A stretch of DNA of 64,000 bases from Pristiophorus japonicus (lineage: Eukaryota). The position numbers and the translations under genes were made by a program. The notes below the pieces were generated by a model that worked only from the letters and a program-made list of their open reading frames with translations, was not told the DNA's origin and did no database searches. The stretch lies in assembly GCF_044704955.1 (NCBI RefSeq), contig NW_027252668.1, positions 5,704,001-5,768,000 on the forward strand, written 5' to 3'. This document shows, piece after piece, positions 1 through 54,107 of this stretch (position 1 is its first letter; every line of letters begins with the position of its first letter).

Positions 1-460
1 GGAGAAGAAATTCCTTCTCAACTCGGCTTTAAATTGGCTCCCCCGTATTTTGAGGCTGTGCCCCCTAGTTCTCGTCTCCCCAACCAGTGGAAACAACCCC
101 TCTGCCTCTATCTTGTCTATCCCTTTCATTATTTTAAATGTTTCTATAAGATCACCCCTCATCCTTCTGAACTCCAATGAGTAAAGACCCAGTCTACTCA
201 ATCTATCATCATAAGGTAACCCCCTCATCTCCAAAATCAGCCTCGTGAATCGTCTCTGTACCCTCTCTAAGGCTAGTATATCCTTCCTTAAGTAAAGTGA
301 CCAAAACTGCACGCAGTACAGGTGCGGCCTCACCAATACCCTATACAGTTGCAGCAGGACCTCCCTGCTTTTGTATTCCATCCCTCCTGCAATGAAGGCC
401 AACATTCCATTCACCTTCCTGATTACCTGCTGCACCTGCAAACTAACTTTTTGGGATTCA
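1..460 (-). mobile_element. CR1 LINE, 3' part of ORF2 (runs off window start), interrupted by Tx1 insertions
   Basis: Reverse complement closely matches the CR1 at ~53410-53870; breaks at ...TTTTGGGATTCA (460) and resumes at 3640. Confidence 0.9.
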
Positions 461-670
461 TTTGTTTTAATTGCCGGTGCTTTTAGTGTCCCCTTCCCTT
501 TTATAGGGGGCACTGGGGAAAAATTGTGATTTTAGTGCCCAAAAAAAAACCAAAAAAAAAAGACAAACAAAAAAAAAGGAAAAAAAGGGCCTTGTAAATG
601 TCTGGTGTGTCATCCAGGTTGGGTGGCACAGATAAATGTTTTATGTTTTGCAGGTAGACTCTAAAAGAGT
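461..670 (+). mobile_element. Tx1-clade retrotransposon, 3'UTR-only copy
   Basis: Colinear with 3421-3639 (hairpin, A-rich tract, terminal AAAAGAGT); followed by target sequence TTCATGCACAAGGAC (671-685). Confidence 0.85.
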
Positions 671-685
671 TTCATGCACAAGGAC

Positions 686-3400
686 GGCTCTCTCGTCTCG
701 GATCCGGAGGGCGTCAACAACAGGGCCCATGAATATTACGGGGCTCTGTTCTCTCCGGATCCGTCCAGCGAGGAAGCGCGTAGAGTTTTGTGGGAGGACA
801 TGCCGAAAGTCAGCCCGGAGGGTGCCGAAAATCTGGAAGCTCCGCTAAGCCTGGCGGAGCTGACCGGTGCCCTCGACCGGCTCTCGAGGGGAAAATCCCC
901 GGGGCTGGACGGGCTGACCGTGGAGTTCCACAGGGCATTCTGGAACGTCCTGGGGGGCGACTACGCGCGGGTCCTGGGGGAATGTCTGGCGACCGGGGAG
1001 ATGACCCTCTCTTGGCGCAGGGCAGTCATCGTCCTGCTGCCTAAGAAGGGCGATCTCCGCCTCCTTAAGAACTGGCGCCCGGTCTCCCTCCTCAGCACGG
1101 GCTACAAAATCTTCGCCAGGGCGATGTCTGCTCGCCTTGGTGCCATGCTGGACCACATGATCCACCCCGACCAGTCCTACACGGTCCCGGGCCGGACAAT
1201 CCACGACAACATCCATCTGGTCCGGGACCTCATCCATCATTCCCAGGAGGCTGGTCTGTCGGTCGCCTTCTTATCCCTCGACCAAGAGAAGGCGTTCGAC
1301 AGGGTGGATCACGACTACCTGCTCAGAACTCTGCGCGCTTTCGGGTTCGGGACGCATTTCGTCGCCCGGATCCGACTTTTGTACGCCGCCGCGGAGTGTC
1401 TGATTAAGGTTAACGGGTCCTTGACGGCGCCCCTTCGCTATAGGAGAGGGGTGCGCCAGGGATGACCCATGTCCGGCCAGTTATATGCCATCTGCGTGGA
1501 GCCTTTCCTGCGCCTCTTGCGGACGAGGTTGACGGGACTGGCTCTGCAAGGGCCGGGTGTGGAGGTCGTCCTTTCGGCTTACGCCGATGACGTGCTCCTC
1601 GCGGTAGAGGATCCCGCTGACCTGCGGAGGATGCGTGAGTGCCAAGAGATTTACTCGGCTGCATCCTCCGCCAGAATCAACTGGGAGAAATGTTCCGGAC
1701 TCCTGGTGGGTCAGTGGCGGGTGGACTCCCTGCCAGAGGAGCTCAGGCCTTTTGCCTGGAGCACGACCCATCTCCTCTATCTGGGAGTCTACCTTAGCCC
1801 CGACGAGGGAGCCTGGCCGGCAAACTGGCAGGAGCTGGAGGCCAAGGTCGCCGCTCGCCTAGGGCGCTGGACAGGACTGCTCCGAGTGCTGTCCTACAGG
1901 GGTCGAGCGCTAGTCATAAACCAGCTGGTGGCCGCAATGTTGTGGTACCGGCTGGTCACTTTGACCCCTCCCCCTGCGTTTGTCGCCAAGATACAGAAGA
2001 AGCTGGTGGACTTCTTCTGGAACAACAGGAAGCACTGGGTCTCTGCCGCGGTCCTGAGTCTCCCGCTTGAGGAGGGCGGTCAGTCGTTGGTGTGCGTCAG
2101 CGCCCAGCTCGCGACTTTCCGTCTTCAGACCCTGCAGAGATACCTTTACGTCGAGCCCCCTCCTAGGTGGTGTGCTCTGGCGAGGTATTTCTTCCGCCAG
2201 CAGCTCGACCTCAATTATGACACGCAGCTCCTGTTTGTGAACTTGGGGGGTGTCAGGACCGCCCTCCGGGAGCTGCCTGTCTTTTACAGGGAACTCATCA
2301 GGGTCTGGAACAAAGTCTCCACCAAGCGCAGCTCTCCGCCGGCTGGAGTGGCGGCCGTCCTGCAGGAACCGCTGCTCGGGAATCCGTACCTCCGCGACCG
2401 AGGTTTTATGTGGCGGTCGGAAGAGAGGGCTGTGGCTGGTGAGGTGACCAGGGTCAGGGCCCTGCTCGATGGCGGAGGAGCGGGCGGGATGGCACCAGGC
2501 ATGCTGGCGCGGCGTCTAAATTCAGCCGATGTCCGCCGCGCGGCCAAAGCCATCGAGTCGCTAAAAACAGCTTTGGGCCCTGACTCCGTTAGGTGCATCG
2601 AGGAGGCTCAAGCACGTGGGGAGATCCCGTCCGAACTGACCCCCGTCCGGACGGAATTCCTCATTGGCGCCAAACCCCGGAACCTCCCTCGGGGGCCGGC
2701 GCCTCACAACTTGAGCCGCCTCGGGGAAATCCCCTCCGTGCCTTTCAGTTCCGCGCGGAGGGGTTTCCTGTACGGGCTGCTCCTGCATACTCTCAACTTT
2801 GCCATCCTCGCCTGCCGTCCGGACACGCCATGGCATGCCATCCTGCCGTCCGGAGGAGGCGGGGGTCCCCGATGGAGGGCACTCTACGCAGGGGTCCTCC
2901 CACTATTCATCGGGGACTTGGCCTGGAGGGTGGTGCACGGAGCAGTGCCGTGCAACAAATTTTTAAGCCGGTTCATGGACTCCCAGGCCGCCTGCAATTT
3001 CTGCGGTCTGGAGGAGTCCGTGTTCCATGTTTTTATTGAGTGCAAGAGGTTGCAGCCCCTGTTTCATTATTTAAAGGGGCTGCTCCTGAAATTCTGGCTG
3101 CACTTCAGTCCCACTCTCTTTGGGCACCCTGTGCGGAGGGGAGTGGGTAGGTCCGAGGGCCTCCTCATAGGACTGCTCCTGGGCACGGCCAAGAGTGCCA
3201 TCAGCCGGTCCAGGCAGCGGGCGGTCGAGGGGGTCGTTCAACCTGAATGCCTGCCTCTCTTCCGTTCTTACATCCGGTCCATGGTGTCCTTGAAGATGGA
3301 GCACGCGGTGTCCACCGGTACGCTCGCGGCCTTCCGCGAGAGGTGGGCACCGGAGGGACTGGAGTGCACCATCACGCTCGGCAACCAAATTTTTATTTGA
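686..3400 (+). pseudogene. Tx1-type ORF2 (RT + C-terminal Cys/His knuckle), endonuclease missing, one in-frame stop
   Basis: KSPGLDG, NWRPVSLL, LDQEKAFDRV, GVRQG*P (TGA 1463-1465), AYADD, YLG, CNFC..ESVFH...EC. Confidence 0.9.
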
Positions 3401-3639
3401 TTTTGCGTTTTAAAGTTTAATTTGTTTTAATTGCCGGTGCTTTTAGTGTCCCCCTCCCTTTTTATAGGGGGCACTGGAGGAAAAAAAAAAAATTGGATTT
3501 TAGTGCCCCCAAAAAAAAAGAAAAACACAAAGAAAAAACACAAAAAAGAAAAAAATGGGCCTTGTAAATATCTGGTGTGTCATCCAGGTCGGGTGGCACC
3601 GATTAATGTTTATGTTTTACAGGTAAACTCCAAAAGAGT
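686..3639 (+). mobile_element. Tx1-clade (L1 group) non-LTR retrotransposon, 5'-truncated, ~15-bp TSD
   Basis: ORF2 RT and C-terminal domains plus 3'UTR; direct repeat TTCATGCACAAGGAC at 671-685 and 3640-3654. Confidence 0.9.
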
Positions 3640-3700
3640 TTCATGCACAAGGACCCCCAGGTCCCTCTGCACCACAGCATGTTGTAATTTCTCCCCATTC
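3640..3700 (-). mobile_element. Continuation / truncated 5' end of the CR1 at 1-460
   Basis: Reverse complement of 53322-53382; the homologous site in unit 2 (~36420) is empty. Confidence 0.85.
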
Positions 3701-3816
3701 AGCCGTCTTCACAAAGCAATCCTGCAAAAACATCGTAGGGACGAGGGAGTGGGAGTTTTTGCTGGGACCGCGCAGGAGTTAATATCTGACAGAAAATGTT
3801 CGAGATTAGTTTAGTG

Positions 3817-5062: not shown

Positions 5063-5767
5063 CAGATGGAGTATAATGTGGGAAAATGTGAGGTTATCCA
5101 CTTTGGCAGAAATAATAGAAAAGCAAATTATAATTTAAATAAAGAAAAATTACAAAGTGCAGCAGTACAAAGCGATCTGGGGATCCTTGTGCATGAAACA
5201 CAAAAAGTTTGCATGCAGGTACAGCAAGTAATCAGGAAGGCAAATGTAATGTTGGCCTTTATTGCAAGGGGGATAGAGTATAAAAACAGAAGTCCTGCTA
5301 CAACTGTACAGGGTATTGGTGAGGCCACATCTGGAGTACTGTGTACAGTTTTGGTCTCCGTATATAAGGAAGGATATACTTGCATTGGAGGCTGTTCAGA
5401 GAAGGTTCACTCAGTTGATTCCGAAGATGAGGCCAATGACTTATGAGGATAGGTTTGAGTAGATTGGGCCTAAAAACATTGGAGTTCAGAAGAATGAGAG
5501 GTGATCTTATTGAAACTTATAAGATAATGAGGGGACTTGACAAGGTGGATACAGAGAGGATATTTCCACTCATAGGGGCAACTAAAACTTGGGGACATAA
5601 TCTTAGAATTAGGGGCTGCCCATTTAAAACTGGGAAGAGGAGGAATTTCTTCTCTCAGAGGGTTGTAAATCTATGGAATTATCTGCGCCAGAGAGCTGTG
5701 GCGTCTGGGTCATAGAATATATTTAAGGCGGAGATAGTCAGATTTTTGAGCGATAATGGAGTAAAGG

Positions 5768-6554: not shown

Positions 6555-7028
6555 TGGGCGACCAACATCCTCAAGGTTGTGGCCGATGGCAAGGATCGCA
6601 GAGGAATGTCCTTGGCCACGATAAATAAGGCTCTGGCGGCCAAAGGCGTGGATGTGGAGAAGCGCGCGTCCAAGATAAGATTCAGTATTAAGAGTAATGT
6701 GATGAATGGCTCCCTGAAGCAGATCAAGGGCACGGGCGCCTCGGGCTCCTTCAAAATCGCTAATACAGATCCCCATGAGAAAGTGGGAAAGAAGGTGAAG
6801 AAAGCAGCAGCCAAGAAATCTCCAGCAAAGAAAGCAGCAGCGAAGAAAACGAGCACCAAGAAGGCGCTAACAGCAAAAAAGACAGCGAAAGGGCCGGCTA
6901 GGAAGAAGGCGGCGGTGAAGAAGCCCAAGAGCCCCAAGAAAGTGAAGGCGGCCAAAAAGGTGGAGAACCCGAGGGTCAAGGCCACGCCCAAATCAGCAAA
7001 GGCCAAGAAAGCAGCACCCAAAAAGTAA
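6555..7028 (+). pseudogene. H1: Histone H1, 5'-deleted (promoter and first ~37 codons lost)
   Basis: Aligns to 40005-40537; fused directly to spacer equivalent to ~38837, i.e. a ~1.17 kb deletion relative to unit 2. Confidence 0.9.
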
Positions 7029-7062
7029 ATAAAATGGCAACTTCTAAACATTTAAACCCAAA

Positions 7063-7103
7063 GGCTCTTCTCAGAGCCACCCACGCCTCTCAGAAAAGAG
7101 CTG
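7063..7103 (+). promoter_or_regulatory. Histone 3' stem-loop and downstream element (H1)
   Basis: GGCTCTTCTCAGAGCC ACCCA, then AAAAGAGCTG. Confidence 0.9.
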
Positions 7104-7199
7104 ATCCCGGAATCAAATAATCCCTGTCCCGGGCTCAGATTCCAGATAGAAATCATTGAAAATGACCGCGGGATCCCTCGTGACTCGTTGGCATTGGCT

Positions 7200-13519: not shown

Positions 13520-14880
13520 ATAGCTATCAGTTGCTGATATGTGAGTGTTGTTTTTTTACCTCAGTTACTGGCAGGCGAATTTGTGTTTTATTATACACCT
13601 GTCAAATTCTGGTATGTGATTATCATTCTGTTTCTGTCTGTCTCTGTGATATGTGTGTGGGTTTATTCTGCACTTTGTCAGTTTCTGTATGGGAGTGTGT
13701 GTTTTATTCTCTACCTGGCAGCCTCTGGTATAATAGTGTGGGATTTCATCTGTACCTGTCCATCTGTGGCTGGTATCTGAGTGGGGTTTAATCTGTCATT
13801 TCTGGGATGTGAGTGTTGGGTATAATCTGTACCTGTCATTTCTGGTATGTGATTGTGGGGTTTAATCTGTACCTGTCAGTTTCTGGTGTATGAGAGTGGG
13901 GTTTAATCTGTACCTGTCAGTTTCTGATATCTGACTGTGGAGTTTAATCTGTACCTATCTGTTTCTGGTATGTGAGTTGTGTGTTTTATTCTGTACTTGT
14001 CAATTTCTGGTATGCGAGTGTTGGATTTATTTTATACCCGTCAGTCTCTAGTATGCAAGTGTGGAGTTTAATCTGCATCTGTCTGATTCTGGTATGTGAG
14101 AGTTGGGTTTCATCTGTACCTGGCAGGTTCTGATATGTAAGTGTGGGGTTTATTCTGTACCTTTCTGCCTGAGTATGTGAGTGTAATGTTTATTCTGTAC
14201 CTGTCAGTGAGTGTGGGGGATATTCGGTACCTCTTTGTTTCAGGTGTGTGAGTGTTAGATTTAGTCTGTACCTGGTTGTTTCTGGTATACAAATGTTGTG
14301 TTAAATCTGTACCCTTCAGTTTCCACTTTGTGAGTGTGGGGTTATTCTGTAGCTGTCTGTCTCTGGTATATGAGTGTGGGATTTAATCTGTACCTGTTAG
14401 TTTCAGGTATGTGAGTGTAGGGATTAATCTGTACCTGTCATTTCTGGTATGTGAGTGTGGGTTTAAACTGTACCTGTCATTTCTGGTATGCGAGTGTGGA
14501 TTTAATCAAAATCTGTACCTGTCAGATTCTGGTGTGTGAATGTGGGTTTTATTCTGTATCTATCATTTTCTGGTATGTGAGGGTGGGCTTTTCTCTATTT
14601 TTCTGGCCTTGGTATGTGAGGATGGGATTTCTTCCGTACCTGCCAATCTGTGGCTGGTATATGAGAGTGGCGTATAATCTGTACCTGTCACTTTCAGGGA
14701 TTTGAGAGTGGGATTTAATCTGCAACTGTCGTTTCTGGTGAGTGTTGGGTATAAACTGTACCTGTAAGATTTCCTCGCTTTCTGTCAACTTCTGCTACAA
14801 AGTTTTTACCCTGAATTTGTCAGTTTCTGGTAGGGGAATGCGGATTTCACTTTGTACCTGTCAGCATTTTATGTGTGAGT
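13520..14880. repeat. Degenerate ~41-bp satellite (older subfamily)
   Basis: TTTAATCTG recurs at 13861, 13902 and 13943; consensus about TCTGGTATGTGAGTGTGGGGTTTAATCTGTACCTGTCAGTT. Confidence 0.85.
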
Positions 14881-17800
14881 ATGAGTGTTTCCCTGTATAT
14901 ATCTGTCTCTGGTTTGTGAGGGTGGGATTTTCCCTGTAGATATCTGTCTCTGTGATGTGAGGCTGGGATTTTCCCTGTATATATCTGTATCTGGTATGTG
15001 AGGGTGGGATTTTCCCTGTATATATCTGTCTCTGGTGTGTGAGAGTGGGATATTCTCTGGAAATATCTGTCTCTGGTGTGTGAGAGTGGGCTGATCCCTG
15101 TAGATATCTGTCTCTGGTATGTGAGGGTGGGATTTTCTCTGTATATATCTGTGTCTGGTGTGTGAGGGTGGGATTTTCTCTGTATATATCTTTCTCTGGC
15201 ATGTGAGAGTGGGATTTTCCCTCTACATATCTGACTGGTGTGTGAGGGTGGGATTTTCCCTGTATATATCTGTCCCTGGTATGTGAGGGTGGAATTTTCC
15301 TTGGAAATATCTGTCCCTGGTGTGTGAGGGTGGGATTTTCCCTGTACATATCTGTCTGGTATGTGAGGGTGGGATTTTCCCTGCATATATTTCTGTCTCT
15401 AGTGTGTGAGGGGAGAATTTTCTCTGTATATATCTTTCTCTGGGATGTGAGGGTGGGATTTTCCCTCTACATATCTGACTGGTGTGTGAGGGTGGGATTT
15501 TCCCTGTATATATCTGTCCCTGGTATGTGAGGGTGGGATTTTCCTTGTAAATATCTGTCCCTGGTGTGTGAGGGGAGAATTTTCCCTGTATATATCTGTC
15601 TCTGGTATGTGAGGGTGGGCTGATCCCTGTAGATATCTGTCTCTGGTATGTGAGGGTGGGATTTTCTCTGTATATATCTGTGTCTGGTGTGTGAGGGTGG
15701 GATTTTCTCTGTATATATCTTTCTCTGGGATGTGAGGGTGGGATTTTCCCTCTACATATCTGACTGGTGTGTGAGGGTGGGATTTTCCCTGTATATATCT
15801 GTCCCTGGTATGTGAGGGTGGGATTTTCCTTGTAAATATCTGTCCCTGGTGTGTGAGGGGAGAATTTTCCCTGTATATATCTGTCTCTGGTGTGTGAGAG
15901 TGGGATATTCTCTGGAAATATCTGTCTCTGGTGTGTGAGAGTGGGCTGATCCCTGTAGATATCTGTCTCTGGTATGTGAGGGTGGGATTTTCTCTGTATA
16001 TATCTGTGTCTGGTGTGTGAGGGTGGGATTTTCTCTGTATATATCTTTCTCTGGCATGTGAGAGTGGGATTTTCCCTCTACATATCTGACTGGTGTGTGA
16101 GGGTGGGATTTTCCCTGTATATATCTGTCCCTGGTATGTGAGGGTGGAATTTTCCTTGGAAATATCTGTCCCTGGTGTGTGAGGGTGGGATTTTCCCTGT
16201 ACATATCTGTCTGGTATGTGAGGGTGGGATTTTCCCTGCATATATTTCTGTCTCTAGTGTGTGAGGGGAGAATTTTCTCTGTATATATCTTTCTCTGGCA
16301 TGTGAGGGTGGGATTTTCCCTCTACATATCTGACTGGTGTGTGAGGGTGGGATTTTCCCTGTATATATCTGTCCCTGGTATGTGAGGGTGGGATTTTCCT
16401 TGTAAATATCTGTCCCTGGTGTGTGAGGGGAGAATTTTCCCTGTATATATCTGTCTCTGGTATGTGAGGGTGGGCTGATCCCTGTAGATATCTGTCTCTG
16501 GTATGTGAGGGTGGGATTTTCTCTGTATATATCTGTGTCTGGTGTGTGAGGGTGGGATTTTCTCTGTATATATCTTTCGCTGGGATGTGAGGGTGGGATT
16601 TTCCCTCTACATATCTGACTGGTGTGTGAGGGTGGGATTTTCCCTGTCTATATCTGTCCCTGGTATGTGAGGGTGGGATTTTCCCTGTAAATATCTGTCC
16701 CTGGTGTGTGAGCGGAGAACTTTCCCTGTATATATCTGTCTCTGGTATGTGAGGGTGGGATTTTCTCTGAGCATATCTGTCTCTGGTGTTTGGGAATGGG
16801 ATTTTCTCGATATATATCTGTCTCCAGTGTGTGAGGGTGGGATTTTCTCTGTATATAATCGGTCTCTAGTGTGTGAGGGTGCGATTTTCTCTGGAAATAT
16901 ACAGTCTCCGGTATGTGATGGTGGGATTTTCCCTGTATATATCAATCTCTGGTATGTGAGGGTGGAATTTGTTCTCGATATATCTGTCTCTGGTGTGTGA
17001 GGGTGGGATTTTCCCTGTATATATCGGTCTCTGGTGTGTGAGGGTGGGATTTTCCCTGTATTTATCTGTTTCTGGTGAGTGAGGGTGGGCTTTTCACTGT
17101 ATATATCTGTCTCTGGTATGTGCGGGTGGGATTTTCTCTGTATATATCTGTCTACGGTATGTAAGGGTGGGATTTTCCCGGTATATATCTGTCTCTGGTG
17201 TGTGAGGGTGGGATTTTCTCTGTATATATCTGTCCAATCTGTGAGGGTGTGATTTTCTCTGTATTTCTCTGTCTCTCGTGTGTGAGGGTGGGATTTTCTC
17301 TATGTATTTGTCTCTGGTATGTGAGGGTGAGATTTTTTCTGTATAGAATCGGTCTCTGGTGCGTGAGGGTGGGATTTTCCATGCTTATATCTGTCTCTGA
17401 TATGTGAGGGTGGGATTTGTCCTGTATGGATCTGTCTCTGGTATGTGAGGGTGAGATTTTCACTGTGCATATCTGTCTCTGGTGTGTGGGAGTGGGATTT
17501 TCTCGATATATATTTGTCTCTGGTGTGTGAGGGTGGGATTTTCCCTGTGTAGTTCTGTCTCTGGTGTGTGAGGGAGGGATTTTCCCTGTATATATACAGT
17601 CTCCGGTAGGTGAGGGTGGGATTTTCACTGTGCATATCAATCTCTGGTATGTGAGGGTGAAATTTTCTCTGTATGTAATCGGTCTCTGGTGTGTGAGGGT
17701 AGGATTTTCCCTGGAAATATCTGCCTCTGGTGTGTGAGGGTGGGATTTTCCATGCTTATATCTGTTTCTGGGATGTGAGGGTGGGATTTGTCCTGTATGG

Positions 17801-20800
17801 ATCTGTCTCTGGTATGTGAGGGTGAGATTTTCACTGTGCATATCTGTCTCTGGTGTGTGGGAGTGGGATTTTCTCGATATATATCTGTCTCTGGTGTGTG
17901 AGGGTGGGATTTTCCCTGTGTAGTTCTGTCTCTGGTGTGTGAGGGAGGGATTTTCCATGTATATATACAGTCTCCGGTAGGTGAGGGTGGGATTTTCACT
18001 GTACATATCAACCTCTGGTATGTGAGGGTGGAATTTTCTATGTATGTAATCGGTCTCTGGTGTGTGAGGGTAGGATTTTCCCTGGAAATATCTGCCTCTG
18101 GTGTGTGAGGGTGGGATTTTCCATGCTTATATCTGTTTCTGGGATGTGAGGGTGGGATTTTCCCTGTATATATCTGTCTCTGGGATGTGAGGGTGGGATT
18201 TTCTCTGTATATATCTGTCTCTGGTGTGTGAGGGTGGGATTTTCTCTGTATATATCTGTCTCTGGTGTGTGAGGGTGGGATTTTCTCTGTATATTCCTGT
18301 TTCTGGGATGTGAGGGTGGGATTTTCCCTGTATATATCTGTCTCTGGGATGTGAGGGTGGGATTTTCTCTGTATATATCTGTCTCTGGTGTGTGAGGGTG
18401 GGATTTTCTCTGTATATATCTGTCTCTGGTGTGTGAGGGTGGGATTTTCTCTGTATATTCCTGTCTCTGGCATGTGAGGGTGGGATTTTCTCTGTACAGA
18501 TCTGTCTCTGGTATGTGAGGGTGGGATTTCCCCTGTATATATCGGTCTCCGATATGTGAGGGTGGAATTGTCTCTGGTGTGTGAGGGTGGGATTGTTCCT
18601 GTATATATCTGTCTAGTATGTGAGGGTCAGATTTTCTCTGTATATATCGGTCTATGGTGTGTGAGGGTTGGATTTGTCCTGTATATATCGGTCTCTGGTG
18701 TGTGAGGGTTGGATTTTCCCTGTATATATCTGTTTCTGGTGTGTGAGGGTGGGATTTTCCCTGTATATATCTGTCTCTGCTGTGTGAAAGTGGGATTTTC
18801 TCTATATATATATATATCTGTCTCTGGTGTGTGAGGGTGGGATTTCCCCTCTATATATCGGTCTCTGGTGTGTGAGGGTAGGATTTTCCTCGTATATATC
18901 TGTCACTGGTATGTGAGGGTGGCATTTTCCCTGTATTTTATCTGTTTCTGGTGAGTGAGGGTGGGATTTTCACTGTATATATCTGTCTACGGTATGTGAG
19001 GGTGAGATTTTCCCTGTATATATCTGTCTCTGGTGTGTGAGGGTGAGATTTTCCCTGTATATATCGGTCTCTGGTGTGAGGGTGGGATTTTCTCTGTATA
19101 TATCTGTCTAGTCTGTGAGGGTGTGATTTTTTCTGTATTTCTCTGTCTCTCGTGTGTGAGGGTGGGCTTTTCACTGTATATATCTGTCTCTGGTATGTGA
19201 GGGTGAGATTTTCTCTGTGCATATCTGTCTCTGGTGTGTGGGAGTGGGATTTTCTCCGTATATATCTGTCTCTAGTGTGTGAGGGTGGGATTTTCTCTGT
19301 ATAGAATCGGTCTCTGGTGCGTGAGGGTGGGATTTTCTCTGTATATATCTGTCTAGTCTGTGAGGGTGTGATTTTTTCTGTATTTCTCTGTCTCTCGTGT
19401 GTGAGGGTGGGCTTTTCACTGTATATATCTGTCTCTGGTATGTGAGGGTGAGATTTTCTCTGTGCATATCTGTCTCTGGTGTGTGGGAGTGGGATTTTCT
19501 CCGTATATATCTGTCTCTAGTGTGTGAGGGTGGGATTTTCTCTGTATAGAATCGGTCTCTGGTGCGTGAGGGTGGGATTTTCCATGCTTCTATCTGTCTC
19601 TGGTATGTGAGGGTGGGATTTGTCCTGTATGGATCTGTCTCTGGTATGTGAGGGTGAGATTTTCTCTGTGCATATCTGTCTCTGGTGTGTGGGAGTGGGT
19701 TTTTCTCGATATATATCTGTCTCTGGTGTGTGAGGGTGGGATTTTCCCTGTGTAGTTCTGTCTCTGGTGTGTGAGGGAGGGATTTTCCCTGTATATATCT
19801 GTCTCTGGTGTGTGATGGTGGGATTTTCCCTGTATATATCAGTCTCTGATGTGTGAGGGTGGGATTTTCCCTGTATATATCTGTCTACTCTGTGAGGGTC
19901 AGATTTGCTCTGTATATCTCTGTCTCTGGTGTGTGAGGGTGGAATTTTCCCTGTACATATCTGTCTCTGATGTGTGAGGGTGGGATTTTCCATGCTTCTA
20001 TCTGTCTCTGGTATGTGAGGGTTGGATTTGTCCTGTATATATCGGTCTCTGGTGTGTGAGGATGGAATTTTCCCTGAATATATCTGTCTCTGGTGTGTGA
20101 GGGAGGGCTTTTCCCTGTATATATCTGTCTCTGGTGTGTGAGGGTGGGATTTTCCCTGTACATATCAATCTCTGGTATGTGAGGCTGGAATTTTCCCTGT
20201 ATATATCTGTCTCTGGTGTGTGAGGGTGGGATTTTCCCTGTATATATCTGTCTCTGGTGTGTGAGGGTGCGATTTTCCCTGCAGATCTGCAGTCTCCGGT
20301 ATTTGAGGGTGGGATTTTCCCTGAATATATCTGTCTCTGGTGTGTGAGGGTGCTATTTTCTATGTATATATCTGTCTCTGGTGTGTGAGGGAGGGAATTT
20401 CTCTGTATAGAATCGGTCTCTGGTGCGTGAGGGTGGGATTTTCCATGCTTATATCTTTCTCTGGTATGTGAGGGTGGGATTTGTCCTGTATGGATCTGTC
20501 TCTGGTGTGTGATAGTGGTATTTTCACTGTATACACCTGTCTCTGGTGTGTGAGGGTGGGATTTTCTCTGTACATATCAATCTCTGGTGTGTGAGAGTGG
20601 GATTTTCTCTGTATATACCTGCCTCTCGTGTGTGAGGGTGGGATTTTCCCTGTAAATACCTATCTCTGGCATGTGAGGGTGGTATTTTCCATGCATATAT
20701 CTGCCTCTGGTGTGTGAGGGTGGAATTCTCCCTGTATATATCTGTCTCTGGTATGTGAGGGTGGGATTTTCTCTGTATATATCTGTCTCTGGTGTGTGAG

Positions 20801-23800
20801 GGTGGGATTTTCCCTGCAGATATGCAGTCTCAGGTATTTGAGGGTGGGATTTTCCCTGTATATATCTGTCTCTGGTATGTGAGGGTGGGATTTTCTCTGT
20901 ATATATCTGTCTCTGGTGTGTGAGGGTGGGATTTTCCCTGCAGATATGCAGTCTCAGGTATTTGAGGGTGGGATTTTCCCTGAATATATCTGTCTCTGGT
21001 GTGTGAGGGTGGGATTTTCCCAGTAAATATCTGTCTACTTTGTGAGGGTCAGATTTTCTCTGTATATCTCTGTCTCTGGTGTGTGAGGGTGGAATTTTCC
21101 CTGTACATATCTGTCTCTGGTGTGTGAGGGTGGGATTTTCCATGCTTCTATCTGTCTCTGGTATGTGAGGGTTGGATCTGTCCTGTATATATCGGTCTCT
21201 GGTGTGTGAGGATGGAATTTTCCCTGAATATATCTGTCTCTGATGTGTGAGGAAGGGCTTTTCCCTGTATATATCTGTCTCTGGTATGTGAGGGTGAGAT
21301 TTTCTCTGTGCATATCTGTCTCTGGTGTGTGGGAGTGGGATTTTCTCCGTATATATCTGTCTCTAGTGTGTGAGGGTGGGATTTTCTCTGTCTAGAATCG
21401 GTCTCTGGTGCGTGAGGGTGGGATTTTCCATGCTTCTATCTGTCTCTGGTATGTGAGGGTGGGATTTGTCCTGTATGGATCTGTCTCTGGTATGTGAGGG
21501 TGAGATTTTCTCTGTGCATATCTGTCTCTGGTGTGTGGGAGTGGGCATTTCTCGATATATATCTGTCTCTGGTGTGTGAGGGTGGGATTTTCCCTGTGTA
21601 GTTCTGTCTCTGGTGTGTGAGGGAGGGATTTTCCCTGTATATATCTGTCTCTGGTGTGTGATGGTGGGATTTTCCCTGTATATATCAGTCTCTGATGTGT
21701 GAGGGTGGGATTTTCCCTGTATATATCTGTCTACTCTGTGAGGGTCAGATTTGCTCTGTATATCTCTGTCTCTGGTGTGTGAGGGTGGAATTTTCCCTGT
21801 ACATATCTGTCTCTGATGTGTGAGGGTGGGATTTTCCATGCTTCTATCTGTCTCTGGTATGTGAGAGTTGGATTTGTCCTGTATATATCGGTCTCTGGTG
21901 TGTGAGGATGGAATTTTCCCTGAATATATCTGTCTCTGGTGTGTGAGGGAGGGCTTTTCCCTGTATATATCTGTCTCTGGTGTGTGAGCGTGGGATTTTC
22001 CCTGTACATATCAATCTCTGGTATGTGAGGCTGGAATTTTCCCTGTATTTTTCTGTCTCTGGTGTGTGAGGGTGGGATTTTCCCTGTATATATCTGTCTC
22101 TGGTGTGTGAGGGTGCGATTTTCCCTGCAGATCTGCAGTCTCCGGTATTTGAGGGTGGGATTTTCCCTGAATATATCTGTCTCTGGTGTGTGAGGGTGCT
22201 ATTTTCTATGTATATATCTGTCTCTGGTGTGTGAGGGAGGGAATTTCTCTGTATAGAATCGGTCTCTGGTGCGTGAGGGTGAGATTTTCCATGCTTATAT
22301 CTTTCTCTGGTATGTGAGGGTGGGATTTGTCCTGTATGGATCTGTCTCTGGTGTGTGATAGTGGTATTTTCACTGTATACACCTGTCTCTGGTGTGTGAG
22401 GGCGGGATTTTCTCTGTACATATCAATCTCTGGTATGTGAGGGTGGGATTTTCTCTGTATATAATTGGTCTCTGGTCTGTGAGGGTGGGATTTTCTATGT
22501 ATCTATCTGTCTCTGGTGTGTGAGGGTGGGATTTGCTCTGTATATATCTGTCTCTGGTATGTGAGTGTGGGATTTTCTATCCCAATATCTGTCTCTGGTA
22601 TGTGAGGGTGGGATTTTCTCTGTGCATATCTGTCTCTGGTCTGTGAGGGTGGGATTTTCCCTGTATATATCTGTCTCTGGTATGTGTGGATGCGATTTTC
22701 CCTGTATATATCTGTCTCTGGTGTGTGAGGTTGGGATTTTCTATGTATATATCTGTCTCTGGTGTGTGAGAGTGGGATTTTCTCTGTATATACCTGCCTC
22801 TCGTGTGTGAGGGTGGGATTTTCCCTGTAAATACCTATCTCTGGCATGTGAGGGTGGTATTTTCTCTGCATATATCTGTCTCTGGTATGTGAGGGTTTGA
22901 TTTTCTCTGTATATATCTGTCTCTGGTATTTGAGAGTGTCATTTTCCCTGTATATAATCGGTCTCTGGTGTGTGAGGGTGGGATTTTCCATGCATATATC
23001 TGCCTCTGGTGTGTGAGGGTGGAATTCTCCCTGTATATATCTGTCTCTGGTATGTGAGGGTGGGATTTTCTCTGTATATATCTGTCTCTGGTGTGTGAGG
23101 GTGGGATTTTCCCTGCAGATATGCAGTCTCAGGTATTTGAGGGTGGGATTTTCCCTGAATATATCTGTCTCTGGTGTGTGAGGGTGGGATTTTCCCAGTA
23201 AATATCTGTCTCTGGTATGTGAGGGTGGGATTTTCTCTGTATATATCTGTCTCTGGTGTGTGAGGGTGGGATTTTCCCTGCAGATATGCAGTCTCAGGTA
23301 TTTGAGGGTGGGATTTTCCATGCATATATCTGCCTCTGGTGTGTGAGGGTGGAATTCTCCCTGTATATATCTGTCTCTGGTATGTGAGGGTGGGATTTTC
23401 TCTGTATATATCTGTCTCTGGTGTGTGAGGGTGGGATTTTCCCTGCAGATATGCAGTCTCAGGTATTTGAGGGTGGGATTTTCCCTGAATATATCTGTCT
23501 CTGGTGTGTGAGGGTGGGATTTTCCCAGTAAATATCTGTCTACTTTGTGAGGGTCAGATTTTCTCTGTATATCTCTGTCTCTGGTGTGTGAGGGTGGAAT
23601 TTTCCCTGTACATATCTGTCTCTGGTGTGTGAGGGTGGGATTTTCCATGCTTCTATCTGTCTCTGGTATGTGAGGGTTGGATCTGTCCTGTATATATCGG
23701 TCTCTGGTGTGTGAGGATGGAATTTTCCCTGAATATATCTGTCTCTGGTGTGTGAGGAAGGGCTTTTCCCTGTATATATCTGTCTCTGGTGTGTGAGGGT

Positions 23801-24785
23801 GGAATTTTCCCTGTACATATCAGTCTCTGGTATGTGAGGGTTGGATTTGTCCTGTATATATCGGTCTCTGGTGTGTGAGGGAGGGATTTTCCCTGTATAT
23901 ATCTGTCTCTGGTGTGTGAGGGTGAGATTTTCTGTGTATATGTCGGTCTCTGGTATGTGAGGGAGGGATTTTCCCAGTATATATCGGTCTCCGATATGTG
24001 AGGGTGTAATTTTCTCTGTATATAATCGGTCTCTGGTATGTGAGGATGGGATTTTCTATGTGCATGTCAGTGTGGTTTGTGAGTGCGGGATTTTCTCTGT
24101 ATATATCTGTCTGGTGTGTAATGGTGGGATTTATTCTCTATATATCTGTCTCTGGTTTGTGAGGCTGGGATTTTCCCTGTATATACTCTGCTCTGCTCTG
24201 CTGTGTATATATCTGTCTCTGGTGTGCGAGGGTGGGATTTTCCCTGTATATATCTGTCTCTGGTATGTGAGGGTGCGATTATCCCTGCAGAGATGCAGTC
24301 TCTGGTATTTGAGGGTGGGATTTTCCCTGAATATGTCTGTCTCTGGTGTGTGAGGGTGCTATTTTCTCTGTATATATCAATCTCTGGTGTGTGAGGGTGG
24401 GATTTCCTCTGTATGTATCTGTCTCTAGTATGTGAGGGTGGGATTTTCTCTGTGCATATCTGTCTCTGGTCTGTGAGGGTGGGATTTTCCCTGTATATAT
24501 CTGTCTCTGGTATGTGAGGATGGGATTTTCCCTGTATATATCTGTCTCTGGTGTTTGAGGGTGGGATTTGCTCTGTATATATCTGTCTCTGGTATGTGAG
24601 TGTGGGATTTTCTCTCCCTATATCTGTCTCTGGTATGTGAGGGTGGGATTTTCTCTGTGCATATCTGTCTCTGGTCTGTGAGGGTGGGATTTGCTCTGTA
24701 TATATCTGTCTCTGGTGTGTGAGTGTGGGATTTTCTCTGTATATATCTGTCTCTGGTGTGTGAGTGTGGGAATTTCCCTGAATAT

Positions 24786-25790
24786 GCTCTGCTGGGGCCC
24801 CAGCTGTTTACATTGTACATTAATGATTTGGACGAGGGGATTAAATGTAGTATCTCCAAATTTGCGGATGATACTAAGTTGGGTGGCAGTGTGAGCTGCG
24901 AGGAGGGTGCTATGAGGCTGCAGAGTGACTTGCATAGGTTCGGTGAGTGGGCAAATGCATGGCAGATGAAGGATAATGTGGATAAATGTGAGGTTATCCA
25001 CTTTGGTGGTAAAAACAGAGAGAGAGACTATTATCTGAATGGTGACAGATTAGGAAAAGGGGAAGTGCAACGAGACCTGGGTGTCATGGTACATCAGTCA
25101 TTGAAGGTTGGCATGCAGGTACAGCAGGCGGTGAAGAAAGCAGATGGCATTTTGGCCTTCATAGCGAGGGGATTTGAGTACAGGGACAGGGAGGTATTGC
25201 TACAGTTGTACAGGGCCTTGGTGAGGCCACACCTGGAGTATTGTGTAGAGTTTTGGTCTCCTAACTTGAGGAAGGACATTCTTGCTATTGAGGGAGTGCA
25301 GCAAAGGTTCACCAGACTGATTCCCGGGATGGCGGGACTGACATATCAAGAAAGACTGGATCAACTGGGCTTGTATTCACTGGAGTTCAGAAGAATGAGA
25401 GGGGATCTCATAGAAACGTTTAAAATTCTGATGGGTTTAGACAGGTTAATGCAGGAAGAATGTTCCCAATGTTGGGGAATTCCAGATCCAGGGGTCACAG
25501 TCCAAGGATAAGGGGCAATCCATTTAGGACTGAGGTGAGGAGAAACTTCTTCACCCAGAGAGTGGTGAACCTGTGGAATTCTCTACCACAGAAAGTTGTT
25601 GAGGCCAATTCACTAAATATATTCAAAAAGGAGTTAGATCTAGTCCTTACTACTTGGGGGATCAAGGGGTATAGCGAGAAAGCAGGAATGGGGTACTGAG
25701 GTTGCATGTTCAGCCATGAACTCATTGAATGGCGGTGCAGGCCCGAAGGGCCGAATGGCCTACTCCTGCACCTATCTTCTGTGTTTCTGT
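24786..25790 (+). mobile_element. 5'-truncated CR1 LINE inside satellite
   Basis: LGPQLF..YINDL, KFADDTKL, RPHLEYC, 3'UTR. Confidence 0.93.
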
Positions 25791-26245
25791 ATATCTGTCT
25801 CTGGTGTGTGATGGTGGGATTTTCCCAGTATATATCTGTCTCTGGTCTGTGTGTGTGGGATTTTTCCTGTATAAATCTGTCTCTGGTGTGTGAGGGTAGG
25901 ATTTTCCTTGTATATAATCTGTCTCTAGTCTGTGAGGGTGGAATTTTCCCTGTATATATCTGTCTCTGGTGTGTGAGGGTGGCATTTTCCCTGTATATAA
26001 TCGGTCTCTGTTGCGTGAAGGTGGGATTTTCTCTGTATATAATCGGTCTCTGGTATGTGAGGGTGGGATTTTCCCTGTATACATCTGTCTCTGGTGTGTG
26101 AGGTGGGATTTTCCCTGTATATATCTGCCTCTGGTGTGTGAGGGTGGGATTTGTCCTGTATATATCTGTCTCTGGTGTGTGAAGGTGGTATTTTCCCTGT
26201 ATATATCTGTCTCTGGTGTGTGAGTGTGGGATTTTCCCTGAATAT

Positions 26246-27245
26246 GCTGTGCTGGGGCCCCAGCTGTTTGCATTGTACATTAATGATTTGGACGAGGGGA
26301 TTAAATGTAGTATCTCCAAATTTGCGGATGACACTAAGTTGGGTGGCAATGTGAGCTGCGAGGAGGATGCTATCAGGCTGCAGAGTGACTTGGATAGGTT
26401 TGGTGAGTGGGCAAATGCATGGCAGATGAAGTATAATGTGGATAAATGTGAAGTTATCCACTTTGGTGGTAAAAACAGAGAGACAGACTATTATCTGAAT
26501 GGTGACAGATTAGGAAAAGGGGATGTGCAACGAGACCTGGGTGTCATGGTACATCAGTCATTGAAGATTGGCATGCAGGTACAGCAGGCGGTTAAGAAAG
26601 CAAATGGCATGTTGTCCTTCATAGCGAGGGGATTTGAGTACAGGGGCAGGGAGGTATTGCTATAGTTGTACAGGGCCTTGGTGAGGCCATACCTGGAGTA
26701 TTGTGTACAGTTTTGGTCTCCTAACTTGAGGAAGGACATTCTTGCTATTGAGGAAGTGCAGCGAAGGTTCACCAGACTGATTCCCGGGATGGCGGGACTG
26801 ACCTATCAAGAAAGACTGGATCAACTGGGCTTGTATTCACTGGAGTTCAGAAGAATGAGAGGGGATCTCATAGAAACGTTTAAAATTCTGACGGGTTTAG
26901 ACAGGTTAGATGCAGGAAGAATGTTCCCAATGTTGGGGAAGTCCAGAATCAGGGGTCATAGTCCAAGGATAAGGGGTAATCCATTTCGGACTGAGATGAG
27001 GAGAAACTTCTTCACCCAGAGAGTGCTGAACCTGCGGAATTCTCTACCACAGAAAGTTGTTGAGGCCAATTCACTAAATATATTCAAAAAGGAGTTAGAT
27101 ATAGTCCTTACTAGTCGGGGGATCAAGGGGTATGGCGAGAAAGCAGGAATGGGGTACTGAGGTTGCATGTTCAGCCATGAACTCATCGAGTCTGTACCGC
27201 CATTCAAAGTGCTGAATGGCCTACACCTGCACCTATTTTCTGTAT
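26246..27245 (+). mobile_element. 5'-truncated CR1 LINE inside satellite (duplicate of 24786-25790)
   Basis: Same 5' junction CCCTGAATATGCT.TGCTGGGGCCCC; premature stop near 26663. Confidence 0.93.
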
Positions 27246-28183
27246 ATCTGTCTCTGGTGTGTGAGGGTGGGATTTTCCCTGAATATAATCGGTCTTTGGT
27301 GTGAGAGGGTGGTATTTTCCCTGTGTTTATCGGTCTCTGGTGTGTGAGGGTGGGATTTTCCCTGTATATATCTGTCTCTGGTATGTGAGGGTGGGATTTT
27401 CCCTGTATATATATATCTGTCTCTGGTGTGTGAGGGTGGGATTTTTTATGTATATATATCTGTCTGGTATGTGAGGGTCGGATTTTCTCTGTATATATCT
27501 GTCTCTGCTATGTGAGGGTGGAATTTTCCCTGTATATATCTATCTCTGGTGTGTGAGGGTGGGCTTTTCCCTGTATATATCGGTCTCTGGTATGTGAGGG
27601 TTGGATTTTCTATGTATATATCTGTCTCTGGTGTGTGAGGATGGGATTTTCTCTGTCTTTCTCTGTCTCTGGTGTGTGAGGGTGGGATTTCCTCTGTATA
27701 TATGTCTCTGGTATGTGAGTTTGGGATTTTCCCTGTATATATGTGTCTCTGGTATGTGAGGGTGGGATTCTCTCCATTTATCTGCCAGTTTCTGAAATGT
27801 GAGTGTGGATCTTCCTCTGTACCTGACAGTTTCTGCTTAATTGAAAATTGATGCCGCCTATCTCATACCGTTAAATTCAACACCTTTCTTGTCTGTCAAT
27901 GCTGTTGCAACTACATTTGTTGTTTTACTATTATCTTCACTTGGAGTATCCTTGGCACTGTTTGGGACATGAACTCTGCTCTTCACCCATTTTTTGGACA
28001 TTTAACTACTATTTTTACTGTAGTTTTTCACTGAGTACTCATTTATTAGTTTGAAGTCCCTTTTAGTTTAATTTTGTTAATTTTAATTTACAAATGGGAT
28101 TGACAATTGTCTTGTTGTAAAATCCTGCTGCAAGATCCCATAATTCAGTTCTGACCTGCGACGGATATTCAAAGTACCTCGGT

Positions 28184-28255
28184 TGAGATGGCCAAGAATC
28201 GAACCCGGGTCAACTGCTTGAAAGGCAGCTATGCTCAGCACTATACCACCATCGC
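28184..28255 (-). tRNA. tRNA-Gly(TCC)-derived gene/pseudogene carrying a TTC anticodon
   Basis: GCGATGGTGGTATAGTGCTGAGCATAGCTGCCTTTCAAGCAGTTGACCCGGGTTCGATTCTTGGCCATCTCA; acceptor-stem mismatch; D-loop GG changed to GC. Confidence 0.8.
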
Positions 28256-28668
28256 CCACACATCAGTCATTTTGTATTTGCAGACAAACTGCTTCTTACG
28301 GGTCTTCAGCGGGACAAATAAATTGCTGAGCAATCATTTTAATCAGAATGTAAGCACGGTGCTGGGACACCTTCCCTCCAATTACAAATGGTCACTCTGA
28401 ATAGTAATCTTGCTTGGACCGAGCCCTCACCCCATTTATTAGTTTAAAATCTGGACTGAGTCCTCACCCCAGTTACTTTTTCTTCAGTCCCCTCTAGATT
28501 AAACAATAGTTATCACCAAAAATAAATGAAACCTCAATTTTATGTGATAAATAAATGGATGATGAATGTGCTTTGTAAATGTTAGAGAAATGGCATTTGC
28601 TGGAAGGCACTCGTGTTCGGTTCTAAACTGCGACATGGTGACATAAACTGTATTAAATGGAACCTGTT

Positions 28669-28740
28669 TGTGCTGGTCGAGAATGAAACCTGAGTCAACC
28701 CCTGGGAAGGCAGCTATGCTCAGCACTATAGCACCATCAC
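28669..28740 (-). pseudogene. Degenerate tRNA-Gly(TCC) pseudogene
   Basis: Homologous to 28184-28255 with anticodon TCC; anticodon stem and T loop disrupted. Confidence 0.7.
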
Positions 28741-28974
28741 ACTAAGTTTAACATGTAAACCTCTGTATTGACAGACCACTCACCATGGGTCTTTGGAGCT
28801 TTAGTCAGGACTAACTGCAATCATTGTAATCTGAACGTAAACAAGGTTGTTCAGGTTATTTGTCTCCAGCTTAAAACAGTTACTGATGAATGGTCATCTT
28901 GTTGCACTACTGGCTGGCAGCCAGGAGATGGCACCAACCTCCAATAGTTTGGCTGTTGTGGATTGTGTGCACAC

Positions 28975-29119: not shown

Positions 29120-29184
29120 AGTGTTAATTTAGTCGATTTATTCATTCTGCTATCATCCTTTTATAAAATAATGGTACAACACAG

Positions 29185-31700: not shown

Positions 31701-31739
31701 TCAAATGGCCAACTCCTGCTCCGATTGCTTATGTTCTTT

Positions 31740-52587: not shown

Positions 52588-54107
52588 AATAAAGCAATAA
52601 AGAAAGGAAAGATAGATTACGAAGGTAAACTTGCGCAAAACATAAAAACGGATAGTAAAAGCTTTTACAGACATATAAAACGGAAAAGAGTGACTAAAGT
52701 AAATGTTGGTCCCTAAGAAGATGAGAACGGGGATTTAATAATGGGAAATGTGGAAATGGCTGAGACCTTAAACAATTATTTTTCTTTGGTCTTCACAGTG
52801 GAAATCATGTTTAACTAATTTACTGGAATTCTTTGAGGATATAACGAGCATGGTGGATAGAGGTGTTCCGATGGATGTGGTGTATTTAGATTTTCAAAGG
52901 GCATTCGATAAGGTGCCACACAAAAGGTTACTGCAGAAGATAAGGGTACGCGGAGTCAGAGGAAATGTATTAGCATGGATAGAGAATCGGCTGGCGAACA
53001 GAAAGCAGAGAGTCGGGATAAATGGGTCCTTTTCGGGATGGAAATCGGTGGTTAGTGGTGTGCCACAGGGATCGGTGCTGGGACCACAACTGTTTACAAT
53101 ATACATAGATGACCTGGAAGAGGGGACAGAGTGTAGTGTAACAAAATTTGCAGATGACACAAAGATTAGTGGGAAAGCAGGTTGTGTGGAGGACACAGAA
53201 AGACTGCAAAAAGATTTAGATAGGTTAAGCGAATGGGCTAAGGTTTGGCAGATGGAATACAGTGTCGGAAAGTGTGAGGTCATCCACCTTGGGAAAAAAA
53301 CAGTAAAAGGGAATATTATTTGAATGGGGAGAAATTACAACATGCTGCGGTGCAGAGGGACCTGGGGGTCCTTGTGCATGAAACTCTTTTGGAGTTCCTG
53401 CATGAAACTCCAAAAAGTTAGTTTGCAGGTGCAGCAGGTAATCAGGAAGGCGAATGGAATGTTGGCTTTCATTGCGAGAGGGATGGAGTACAAAAGCAGG
53501 GAGGTCCTGCTGCAACTGTACAGAGTATTGGTGAGGCCGCACCTGGAGTACTGCGTGCAGTTTTGGTCACCTTACTTAAGGAAGGATATACTAGCTTTGG
53601 AGGGGGTACAGAGACGATTCACGAGGCTGATTCCGGAGATGAGGGGGTTACCTTATGATGATAGATTGAGTAGACTGGGTCTTTACTCGTTGGAGTTCAG
53701 AAGGATGAGGGGTGATCTTATAGAAACATTTAAAATAATGAAAGGGATAGACAAGATAGAGGCAGAGAGGTTGTTTCCACCGGTCGGGGAGATGAGAACT
53801 AGGGGGCACAACCTCAAAATACGGGGGAGTCAATTTAAAACTGAGTTGAGAAGGAATTTCTTCTCCCAGAGGGTTGTGAATCTGTGGAATTCTCTGCCCA
53901 AGGAAGCAGTTGAGGCTAGCTCATTGAATGTATTCAAATCACAGATAGATAGATTTTTAACCAATAAGGGAATTAAGGGTTACGGGGAGCGGGCGGGTAA
54001 GTGGAGCTGAGTCCACGGCCAGATCAGCCATGATCTTATTGAATGGCGGAGCAGACTTAAGGGGCTAGATGGCCTCCTCCTGTTCCTAATTCTTATGTTA
54101 TGTTATG
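52588..54107 (+). mobile_element. CR1 LINE (unit 2 only), internally deleted, same subfamily as 1-460
   Basis: DFQRAFDKVPH, SGVPQGSVLGP, FADDTK; tail TTATGTTATGTTATG; empty site at ~28400. Confidence 0.92.
53381..53410 (-). mobile_element. Tiny Tx1 3'-terminal footprint(s) in CR1
   Basis: 53381-53396 is the exact reverse complement of 3626-3641; TGCATGAA duplicated (53375-53382, 53399-53406). Confidence 0.7.

Follow-up and report, generated by a model that had tools for sequence, protein, structure and literature searches.

The stretch of Pristiophorus japonicus DNA analysed here, 64,000 nt of contig NW_027252668.1 (assembly GCF_044704955.1, positions 5,704,001–5,768,000; hereafter the window), opens within a long interspersed nuclear element (LINE), likely of the CR1 clade, that is split in antisense orientation by two head-to-tail copies of another LINE, belonging to the Tx1 clade (Table 1). 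This arrangement had been proposed in a preliminary description of the sequence, and both CR1 flanks fit an empty site in register: the left 460 bp join it with 94% identity and the right 62 bp with 98%, the 3′ tail of the host CR1 (located in locus L049) lying about 230 bp to the left of the window start. The two copies stand as first described, while their ends, given as 670 and 3639, are corrected to 671 and 3640; the target site duplication around the long copy is likewise retained, with a length of 13 bp instead of 15, because the earlier figure included one T of the element and one base of a GAC microhomology. The short copy has a target overlap of only 3–4 bp. The long copy begins at position 4224 of the 7.2-kb element and encodes the reverse transcriptase (RT) and the C-terminal zinc motif (Pfam RVT_1 and zf-RVT), followed by the stop codon of open reading frame (ORF) 2 at 3398–3400 and a 240-nt 3′ untranslated region (UTR); a single in-frame stop is found at 1463–1465. 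The folding energy of the whole 3′ UTR was no better than that of shuffled sequences (z-score −0.86, not significant on energy alone). A third event at the same site, in a different CR1 copy, had been overlooked. Beside it, at 53406–53410, and also in locus L008, TTTTGGAGTT/TCATG replaces TTTTGGGAT/TCATG (here and below, the slash marks a cut or junction) and the CR1 frame is shifted by one base; this GAGTT-for-GGAT change is likely a 5-nt abortive Tx1 footprint.

Table 1. Features of the window that concern the Tx1 insertions and their CR1-type target (positions count from the first base of the window).
Feature	Position	Strand	Remarks
Host CR1-type LINE, 3′ part of ORF2	1..457	−	94% vs empty site L081, in register; minus-strand reading QQVIRKVNG...CVQFWS
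Short target overlap TCA(T), 5′ junction of short copy	458..461	+	AT is microhomology with element
Tx1 copy 1, 3′ UTR only, ends GTAGACTCTAAAAGAGTT	461..671	+	86% to full-length copy positions 6964–7185
Target site duplication, left copy TCATGCACAAGGA	672..684	+	GAC at 683–685 is microhomology with element
Tx1 copy 2, 2.95 kb, 5′-truncated in ORF2	686..3640	+	95% to full-length copy
Predicted 3′ UTR stem-loop (TGTCATCC/GGGTGGCA)	3571..3600	+	present in most variants
Terminal hairpin AACTC-CAAAA-GAGTT	3626..3640	+	stem constant, loop variable
Target site duplication, right copy TCATGCACAAGGA	3641..3653	+	
Colinear remainder of host CR1, 62 bp, to its end (codons ...QRDLGVLVH)	3641..3701	−	98% to empty site
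Empty homologous site, older CR1 subfamily	5170..5215	+	GTGTT/TCATGCACAAGGATCCCC on minus strand
Second empty homologous site, older CR1 subfamily	near 37641		
Third event: 17-nt abortive Tx1 insert GGAACTCCAAAAGAGTT in another CR1 copy, same site	53382..53398	−	7-bp duplication TCATGCA

Full-length copies of the Tx1 element measure about 7.2 kb and consist of a 0.9-kb 5′ UTR starting at CCAAT, ORF1, ORF2 and the 240-nt 3′ UTR, without poly(A). ORF1 codes for about 700 amino acids (a 703–705-aa frame) and contains a CCHC knuckle, CHACREVGHVRKNC, matched by Pfam zf-CCHC with an E value of 0.004, below the cut-off. The 1,299-aa ORF2 product combines an apurinic/apyrimidinic endonuclease-like (APE) domain, the RT and the zinc motif (Pfam PF03372, Exo_endo_phos; PF00078; and PF13966, the last just under the cut-off), and the catalytic motifs of both APE and RT are intact. 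Among 16 full-length copies examined, both ORFs are open in 2 and ORF2 is open in 5; the variants shared among six open ORF2 copies comprise 27 synonymous and 20 non-synonymous changes. The copies carry the signature of target-primed reverse transcription, namely 5′ truncation, a fixed 3′ end and target duplication. The terminal ACTC...GAGTT is kept in 77 of 91 distinct 3′ ends, most of the other 14 being truncated inside the hairpin.

Among named full-length proteins, ORF2 is closest to a turtle model (50% identity) and to Xenopus Tx1L ORF2 (49%, along the entire ORF2), with teleost relatives at 34–42%; a horn-shark fragment is 70% identical. In an RT tree of 35 rows, taken from 120 listed matches with one short row dropped and rooted at the midpoint, with no L1 or CR1 outgroup, the element stands beside a stingray sequence in an 11-row clade with sturgeon, Tx1L and turtles (support 100/100), and the teleost relatives fall outside this Tx1L subclade. 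The Tx1 membership put forward in the preliminary description is thus borne out by homology and by the grouping with Tx1L. The nearest endonuclease structure in the PDB is 2v0r, an L1/Tx1L loop chimera. Nine turtle gene models (P0001, P0002, P0006, P0009, P0014–P0016, P0022 and P0033) contain repeated Tx1 ORF2 pieces in series, a hint that stacking at a fixed target may occur in the turtle relatives as well; a metagenome scan with the turtle protein returned one 1.2-kb contig, without ends. A sister Tx1 family is represented in the window itself by a fragment of 330 bp (35090–35507, minus strand; 86% identity in the ORF2 end), which has a different 3′ UTR, no CR1 target flank and no match among the fetched loci; this family may have its own target.

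The best named matches of the host ORF2 are LINE-derived models from birds and turtles (40–55% identity), none of them labelled CR1, and a search of the ESM Atlas with the host protein gave generic RT names only. The 3′ tail of the host, located about 680 nt from the insertion site, reads (AACATAAG)n on the antisense strand and lacks poly(A); such a short-tandem-repeat tail, like the motif features of the host, is one that we take to be typical of CR1. The affinity with birds fits as well, CR1 being the hallmark LINE of their genomes (PMC5753468). Taken together, the best matches, the standing of CR1 in birds and the assumed clade features make it likely that the host belongs to the CR1 clade.

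Divergence from the column yardstick is 2.0% for Tx1 copies (n=42) and 2.65% for host CR1s (n=45), in a set from which nine known duplicates were dropped and two overlapping loci kept; the Tx1 wave therefore followed or accompanied the CR1 wave, and the element is younger than, or coeval with, the host subfamily. The reverse nesting also occurs, as a short CR1-type piece lies inside the endonuclease region of one Tx1 copy (L040:3796–4168).

The target site was defined at base level. The element is inserted antisense in the host ORF2 at GGGAT/TCATG, a cut that on the CR1 coding strand falls within DLGVLVHESQK. Two off-target loci (L164 and L114) read A/TCC before insertion and GAGTT/TCC at the junction, so that the element ends in AAAAGAGTT and the cut lies accordingly. 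Among 48 filled left junctions, the duplication has a modal length of 13 bp (17 of 48) and measures 13–15 bp in 26, 8–11 bp in 8, 6 bp in 1 and 1–5 bp in 13. The possibility that the motif TTCATGCACAAGG is the element's own tail was considered and ruled out: off-target copies end in GAGTT and carry duplications of their own, 11–14 bp in length, so that the motif is the target, and on-target copies run into colinear CR1, contrary to what the preliminary description had named as an outcome damaging to its proposal. Such own duplications were found in 7 of the 8 off-target copies among the first 100 ends and in L011, L019, L174 and L176; in two off-target loci the duplication is degenerate (L168) or not visible (L087). 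All ten off-target duplications that were read out begin with TC(A/C) and are 10–14 bp long.

The specificity extends to the whole 5.92-Gb genome (11.8 billion strand positions), where the reversed-pattern controls gave 0 matches in each pattern search. The exact 19-mer end of the element, representing one 3′-end variant, occurs 629 times and is followed by TTTCATGCAC in 512 cases (81%). Since the target has a frequency of about 5e-6 per position (about 54,000 sites per 11.8 billion strand positions), chance is excluded. The first 100 listed ends, which come from contigs C1–C2, comprise 84 exact junctions and 16 others, all of which were fetched: 8 of these are on target but carry one or two mismatches, and 8 are off target; thus 92 of 100 are on target, and the heterogeneous 3′ flanks that would have spoken against a specific family are not what is found. 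The first 30 of them lead straight into colinear CR1 in 21 cases, into a further stacked Tx1 copy in 5 and off target in 4. An independent sample was obtained by BLAST with the last 95 nt, flank excluded, which gave 40 scored matches out of 1,609 candidates: 28 of the 30 fetched lie at the target (four from one tandem repeat, the window and its duplicate included) and 2 elsewhere. In this sample TTCATGCAC(A) directly adjoins the element in 27 of 30, L011 and L019 are off target, and L006 is on target with 2 extra bases. Sequence-specific Tx1 families have been delimited by more than 20% of flanks being one repeat type (Kojima 2015, PMC4494074); the corresponding values are here the 81% of the single variant and the 92 of the first 100 ends. 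The earlier proposal that a Tx1 family uses the ORF2 of an abundant CR1 subfamily is upheld by these counts, with the host clade being likely.

When all end variants are considered together, at least 15,987 exact junctions are present. Of the 53,978 occurrences of the right half of the site, 6,844 are preceded by the element end, so that at least 12.7% of the sites are filled, and the commonest form of the site has 26,800 exact empty copies; segmental duplicates are counted in these figures, whereas mutated copies escape them. Breakpoints at the 5′ side are scattered along the entire element, from position 1 to about 7,000, and because they differ the insertions are independent.

About two junctions occur per filled site (15,987 vs 6,844, an approximate ratio of counts obtained with different patterns). 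Filled sites are probably struck again, giving stacks, because the GAGTT/TCATG junction and the left GGGAT/TCATG would both stay usable. Many stacks, however, repeat a single 5′ breakpoint, leftmost copy included, and neighbours with the same breakpoint are near-identical at the 5′ side and diverge towards the 3′ side (L009, L011, L034, L045/46, L103, L112, L142, L166 and the 7SL unit described below; the gradient is weak in L090). The repeated independent insertion proposed at first therefore holds for part of the stacks; in many others, a new 3′ end seems to have been grafted onto the copy already in place. Plain unequal crossover, which may have produced identical stack units, was rejected as the sole source, since the leftmost copy shares the breakpoint and the 3′ ends come from different subfamilies. 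The simplest and likely reading is that a new cDNA switches onto the resident copy, duplicating or replacing it; ordinary gene conversion may be an alternative for the same-breakpoint copies.

The window locus has a segmental duplicate, from which Tx1 copy 1 is missing; the short copy is therefore likely younger than the duplication, having inserted at the left site once this was regenerated. The long copy differs from the same-breakpoint copies of the duplicate by 2.7–3.1% at non-CpG sites, a value comparable to the 2.9% between independent copies, while the flanks differ by 0.9–1.2%; CpG decay was dismissed as the cause of the excess, which is present at non-CpG sites alone. Elsewhere, nine junctions about 7.2 kb apart lie head-to-tail at one site (C1:9710121–9765228), and the members of this array are likely full-length. 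Two off-target loci, L174:7498–8210 and L093, contain several short stacked copies with the same duplication; therefore, the first insertion seems to make any site reusable. Targeting of its own family, in the manner of Zepp, was not found, re-insertion beside own copies being confined to the regenerated CR1 site.

Besides Tx1 copies, the target site commonly holds tiny inserts of 8–17 nt and chimeras in which a host RNA is fused 5′ of the Tx1 end, both of which break inside the terminal hairpin; the Tx1 tails of the chimeras are as short as 13 nt. In three samples that had been drawn without regard to RNA capture, at least 7 of 90 loci contain a host RNA, a lower bound given that many 5′ ends are out of view. 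Rfam identified 7SL (L024/L043), 5S (L038 and L041) and tRNA-Trp (L100), ARAGORN a transfer RNA (tRNA) in L106, and inspection by eye a tRNA-derived short interspersed nuclear element (SINE) in L112 and a tRNA 3′ half in L138. The exact junction TTTT/CTCYAAAAGAGTTTCATG is present in 24 places, three of which are the tandem 7SL unit and one a tRNA-SINE; among 20 scanned by Rfam, 9 contain tRNA or vault RNA, and the remaining inserts were judged by eye to be tRNA-like (about 7), of no recognised type (3) or a plain mini-stack (1). A tRNA-Tyr chimera, 98–99% identical to a gene array, retains intron and trailer up to the TTTT terminator, and the 7SL copy likewise stops at the TTTT terminator of its gene. 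Two RNAs in series are apparent in four inserts, and the first RNA of one of them (L201) was not adjacent in the five gene-array loci checked. These features fit end-to-end template jumps that would take place in the nucleus (cf. PMC4476161, PMC4494074).

The corresponding genes are themselves arrayed: the 7SL genes form a 4-kb tandem array at 178.09–178.32 Mb of contig C14 (L053–L079) and the intron-containing tRNA-Tyr genes a 1.4-kb tandem array on C1155 (L208–L212). On contig C8 (199117500–199140000; L043, L044 and L147), three tandem units of about 7.5 kb each comprise a full-length 7SL copy and a full-length Tx1, so placed that the 7SL promoter is upstream of the element. A 7SL-headed SINE family was considered and discarded, as this is the only such locus and the other 37 of 40 scored 7SL matches belong to the C14 gene array. 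Amplification of a SINE from a master copy was not found within the one junction type searched, where the other 21 of 24 junctions differ in RNA or breakpoint.

These data are best accounted for by a family of the Tx1L lineage which inserts antisense at GGGAT/TCATG in the ORF2 of the probable CR1, most likely because its own APE endonuclease recognises and nicks this site; we assign to this reading a probability of about 0.85. The site preference, the independent 5′ truncations, the modal 13-bp duplication, the copies with both ORFs open and the small-RNA inserts at the site are all direct observations. In the proposed mechanism, the bottom strand would be nicked at TGA/ATCC and the top strand 13 nt downstream, with reverse transcription beginning at the terminal hairpin (...AACTC-loop-GAGTT). 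Synthesis would often stall within 8–35 nt; a stop at this point would leave the tiny inserts, and as an alternative the RT might make an end-to-end jump onto a nascent nuclear RNA polymerase III (Pol III) transcript (pre-tRNA, 5S, 7SL, vault RNA or tRNA-SINE) at its U-rich 3′ end. At sites already filled, new cDNA switching onto the resident copy would likely duplicate or overwrite it. Lying in conserved coding sequence of a LINE that is young and high in copy number, the target would likely offer a safe harbour, a role that Tx1D has for Tx1L.

Several points weigh against this interpretation. The minor-groove loop of the endonuclease is 3 residues shorter than that of Tx1L (FTWVRPGVGWSR vs FTYVRVRDGHVSQSR), and the endonuclease is presumed to be the source of specificity by analogy with Tx1L. 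Off-target sites share little besides TC(A/C) and weak AT preceding it. The on-target fraction derives from one 3′-end variant, that is 629 ends out of at least 15,987 junctions, and from listed ends on C1–C2. The same-breakpoint pair L180 lacks the 5′-to-3′ gradient. As regards conservation of the target elsewhere, contigs from 4 runs and four other organisms cover the Tx1 ORF2 end and CR1, and none of the 32 pieces shown bridges the 3′ junction.

The sparse content of the off-target sites would also fit partly RNA-guided targeting, in which the endonuclease reads only TC and the last 25–30 nt of the element base-pair with the strand left uncut or form a fold-back with read-through target sequence. 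These terminal nucleotides do resemble the CR1 sense strand across the cut, with all alignments in one register. The target window has the best score with three of the eight commonest end types, 0 of 807 other 40-nt windows being as good in both empty-site loci tested; with the remaining five it is tied or near the top (5–29 of 807 as good), and shuffled sequences reach the score in 0–22 of 500 cases. The test was, however, post hoc and performed on sequences rich in A/T runs, the score of the commonest end type, only 18, is equalled in other windows, and part of the likeness can be yielded by the terminal palindrome alone. Moreover, an RNA on the uncut strand would have the wrong polarity for copying from the primer, and the Tx1L endonuclease is site-specific by itself (PMC1950540). 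A guiding role has thus a slim chance of being correct; the likeness may reflect captured target sequence, fold-back with read-through RNA, guidance or chance.

It is very improbable that the family has no evolved specificity and that a weak TC preference, together with the abundance or open chromatin of the CR1 subfamily, creates a hotspot. The abundance of the target (53,978 sites) and the 8 off-target cases among the first 100 ends, with only a short shared motif, would agree with such an origin, but insertion is base-precise, in one orientation and at one position of a multi-kilobase LINE, a site that represents about 5e-6 of strand positions receives 81–92% of ends, and the homologous sites of the older CR1 subfamily in the window, two only, are empty. 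Hardly any credit can be given to the spread of one or few Tx1-in-CR1 composites by CR1 machinery or segmental duplication: groups with identical junctions do exist (two of them with 4 and 5 loci among 30, another with 3, a fourfold tandem repeat on C7 and the duplicate of the window) and inflate the counts somewhat, but they have flanks outside CR1 that are 98.6–99.9% identical and only 4 and 6 members genome-wide, and are therefore local duplications, not CR1-borne, which largely refutes CR1-mediated hitchhiking. At most loci, both the 5′ breakpoint and the duplication are particular to the locus, and the host CR1s at filled sites differ by 4.8% on average.

A broader proposal, which we consider unlikely in its entirety, is that a LINE specialised on coding sequence from a different LINE clade is documented here for the first time: it would inactivate at least 13% of the copies in the CR1 subfamily at a conserved ORF2 motif, its 3′ end would be an inverted copy of the target that helps to guide insertion, and its jump-prone RT would make the site a recurring cradle for new Pol III-headed SINEs, with resident copies being continually overwritten.

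An autonomous LINE of another clade would be a new target class for sequence-specific Tx1 elements. The family offers an unusually large and young natural data set, in which base-precise insertions, numbering in the thousands, are accompanied by off-target sites, abortive products and open copies. A change in APE endonuclease specificity can be tested, as the enzyme is 49% identical to the biochemically studied Tx1L enzyme and has a different loop and site. Also testable are the suppression of one LINE by another, driving escape at a constrained coding motif, the birth of SINE heads from Pol III precursors and the homogenisation of repeat copies by re-targeting. Finally, being site-specific for a repeat that is dispensable, such a LINE is also of interest for safe-harbour insertion tools.

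As for the remainder of the window, a 40–41-bp minisatellite with strong strand skew forms long arrays at 13653–33066, 48474–51961 and 62438–62679, the largest array (14888–24195) having 228 copies.

Tx1 targets found in print include Tx1D, U2, microsatellites, Mariner, Harbinger and long terminal repeat (LTR) elements (PMC4494074), and reviews refer to them in general terms, as 'transposons' or 'other TEs' (transposable elements; PMC4640811, PMC8869645, PMC6719617); a literature search, which lay outside Repbase, Dfam and most subscription papers, found no Tx1 or other LINE family targeting CR1 or a foreign LINE. Among the closest known systems is Tx1L of Xenopus laevis, the type member of the clade, whose target Tx1D is a non-autonomous piggyBac transposon (PMC4494074, PMC1950540, PMC6719617) and whose endonuclease nicks almost solely its own target (PMC1950540). 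The shark family shares with Tx1L the APE endonuclease, the fixed-site insertion into another transposable element, the RT clade and 49% of ORF2 residues. Unlike Tx1L, whose target is a DNA transposon, it inserts into coding sequence of a LINE from a different clade and fills thousands of sites; its endonuclease hairpin loop is 3 residues shorter, and the bases after the nick are ATCC/AACT, compared with AGTT for Tx1L (PMC1950540).

Other transposable elements are also the targets of the crocodilian families Tx1-Mar, Tx1-8_Crp, Tx1-4_AMi, Tx1-9_AMi and SINEU, found in Mariner-N4, LTR elements and Harbinger (Kojima 2015, PMC4494074), where insertions are often antisense and in tandem and small-RNA heads arise by template switching, as proposed here; however, no LINE target is named in the text of that paper, and the crocodilian families are old (85–87% identity to consensus, against about 98% here). 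The RNA heads differ as well: in crocodilians U1 and U2 heads became amplified as SINE families (PMC4494074), while each chimera found in the shark is a separate capture of a Pol III precursor. Keno, Kibi and Koshi share the Tx1 clade and the strategy of a multicopy target, which for them consists of U2 snRNA (small nuclear RNA) genes or microsatellites (PMC4494074); the targets of the Keno and Tx1-Mar subgroups (U2 and Mariner-N4) differ from that of the shark family.

Outside the Tx1 clade, U6-LINE chimeras carry a small RNA 5′ of a LINE 3′ end through template switching by L1, L2 and RTE-like LINEs, and pre-tRNA retropseudogenes have been read as a sign of nuclear recruitment (PMC4476161); the shark inserts differ in that many Pol III RNAs, some of them two in series, are all found at one defined site. 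Insertion of a LINE into LINE copies, with tandem arrays of 5′-truncated copies, is known from the L1-type Zepp and ZeppL of green algae; Zepp, however, targets its own copies in centromeric clusters (PMC8226300), whereas for the shark family the target is a LINE of an unrelated clade, with tens of thousands of sites dispersed in the genome.

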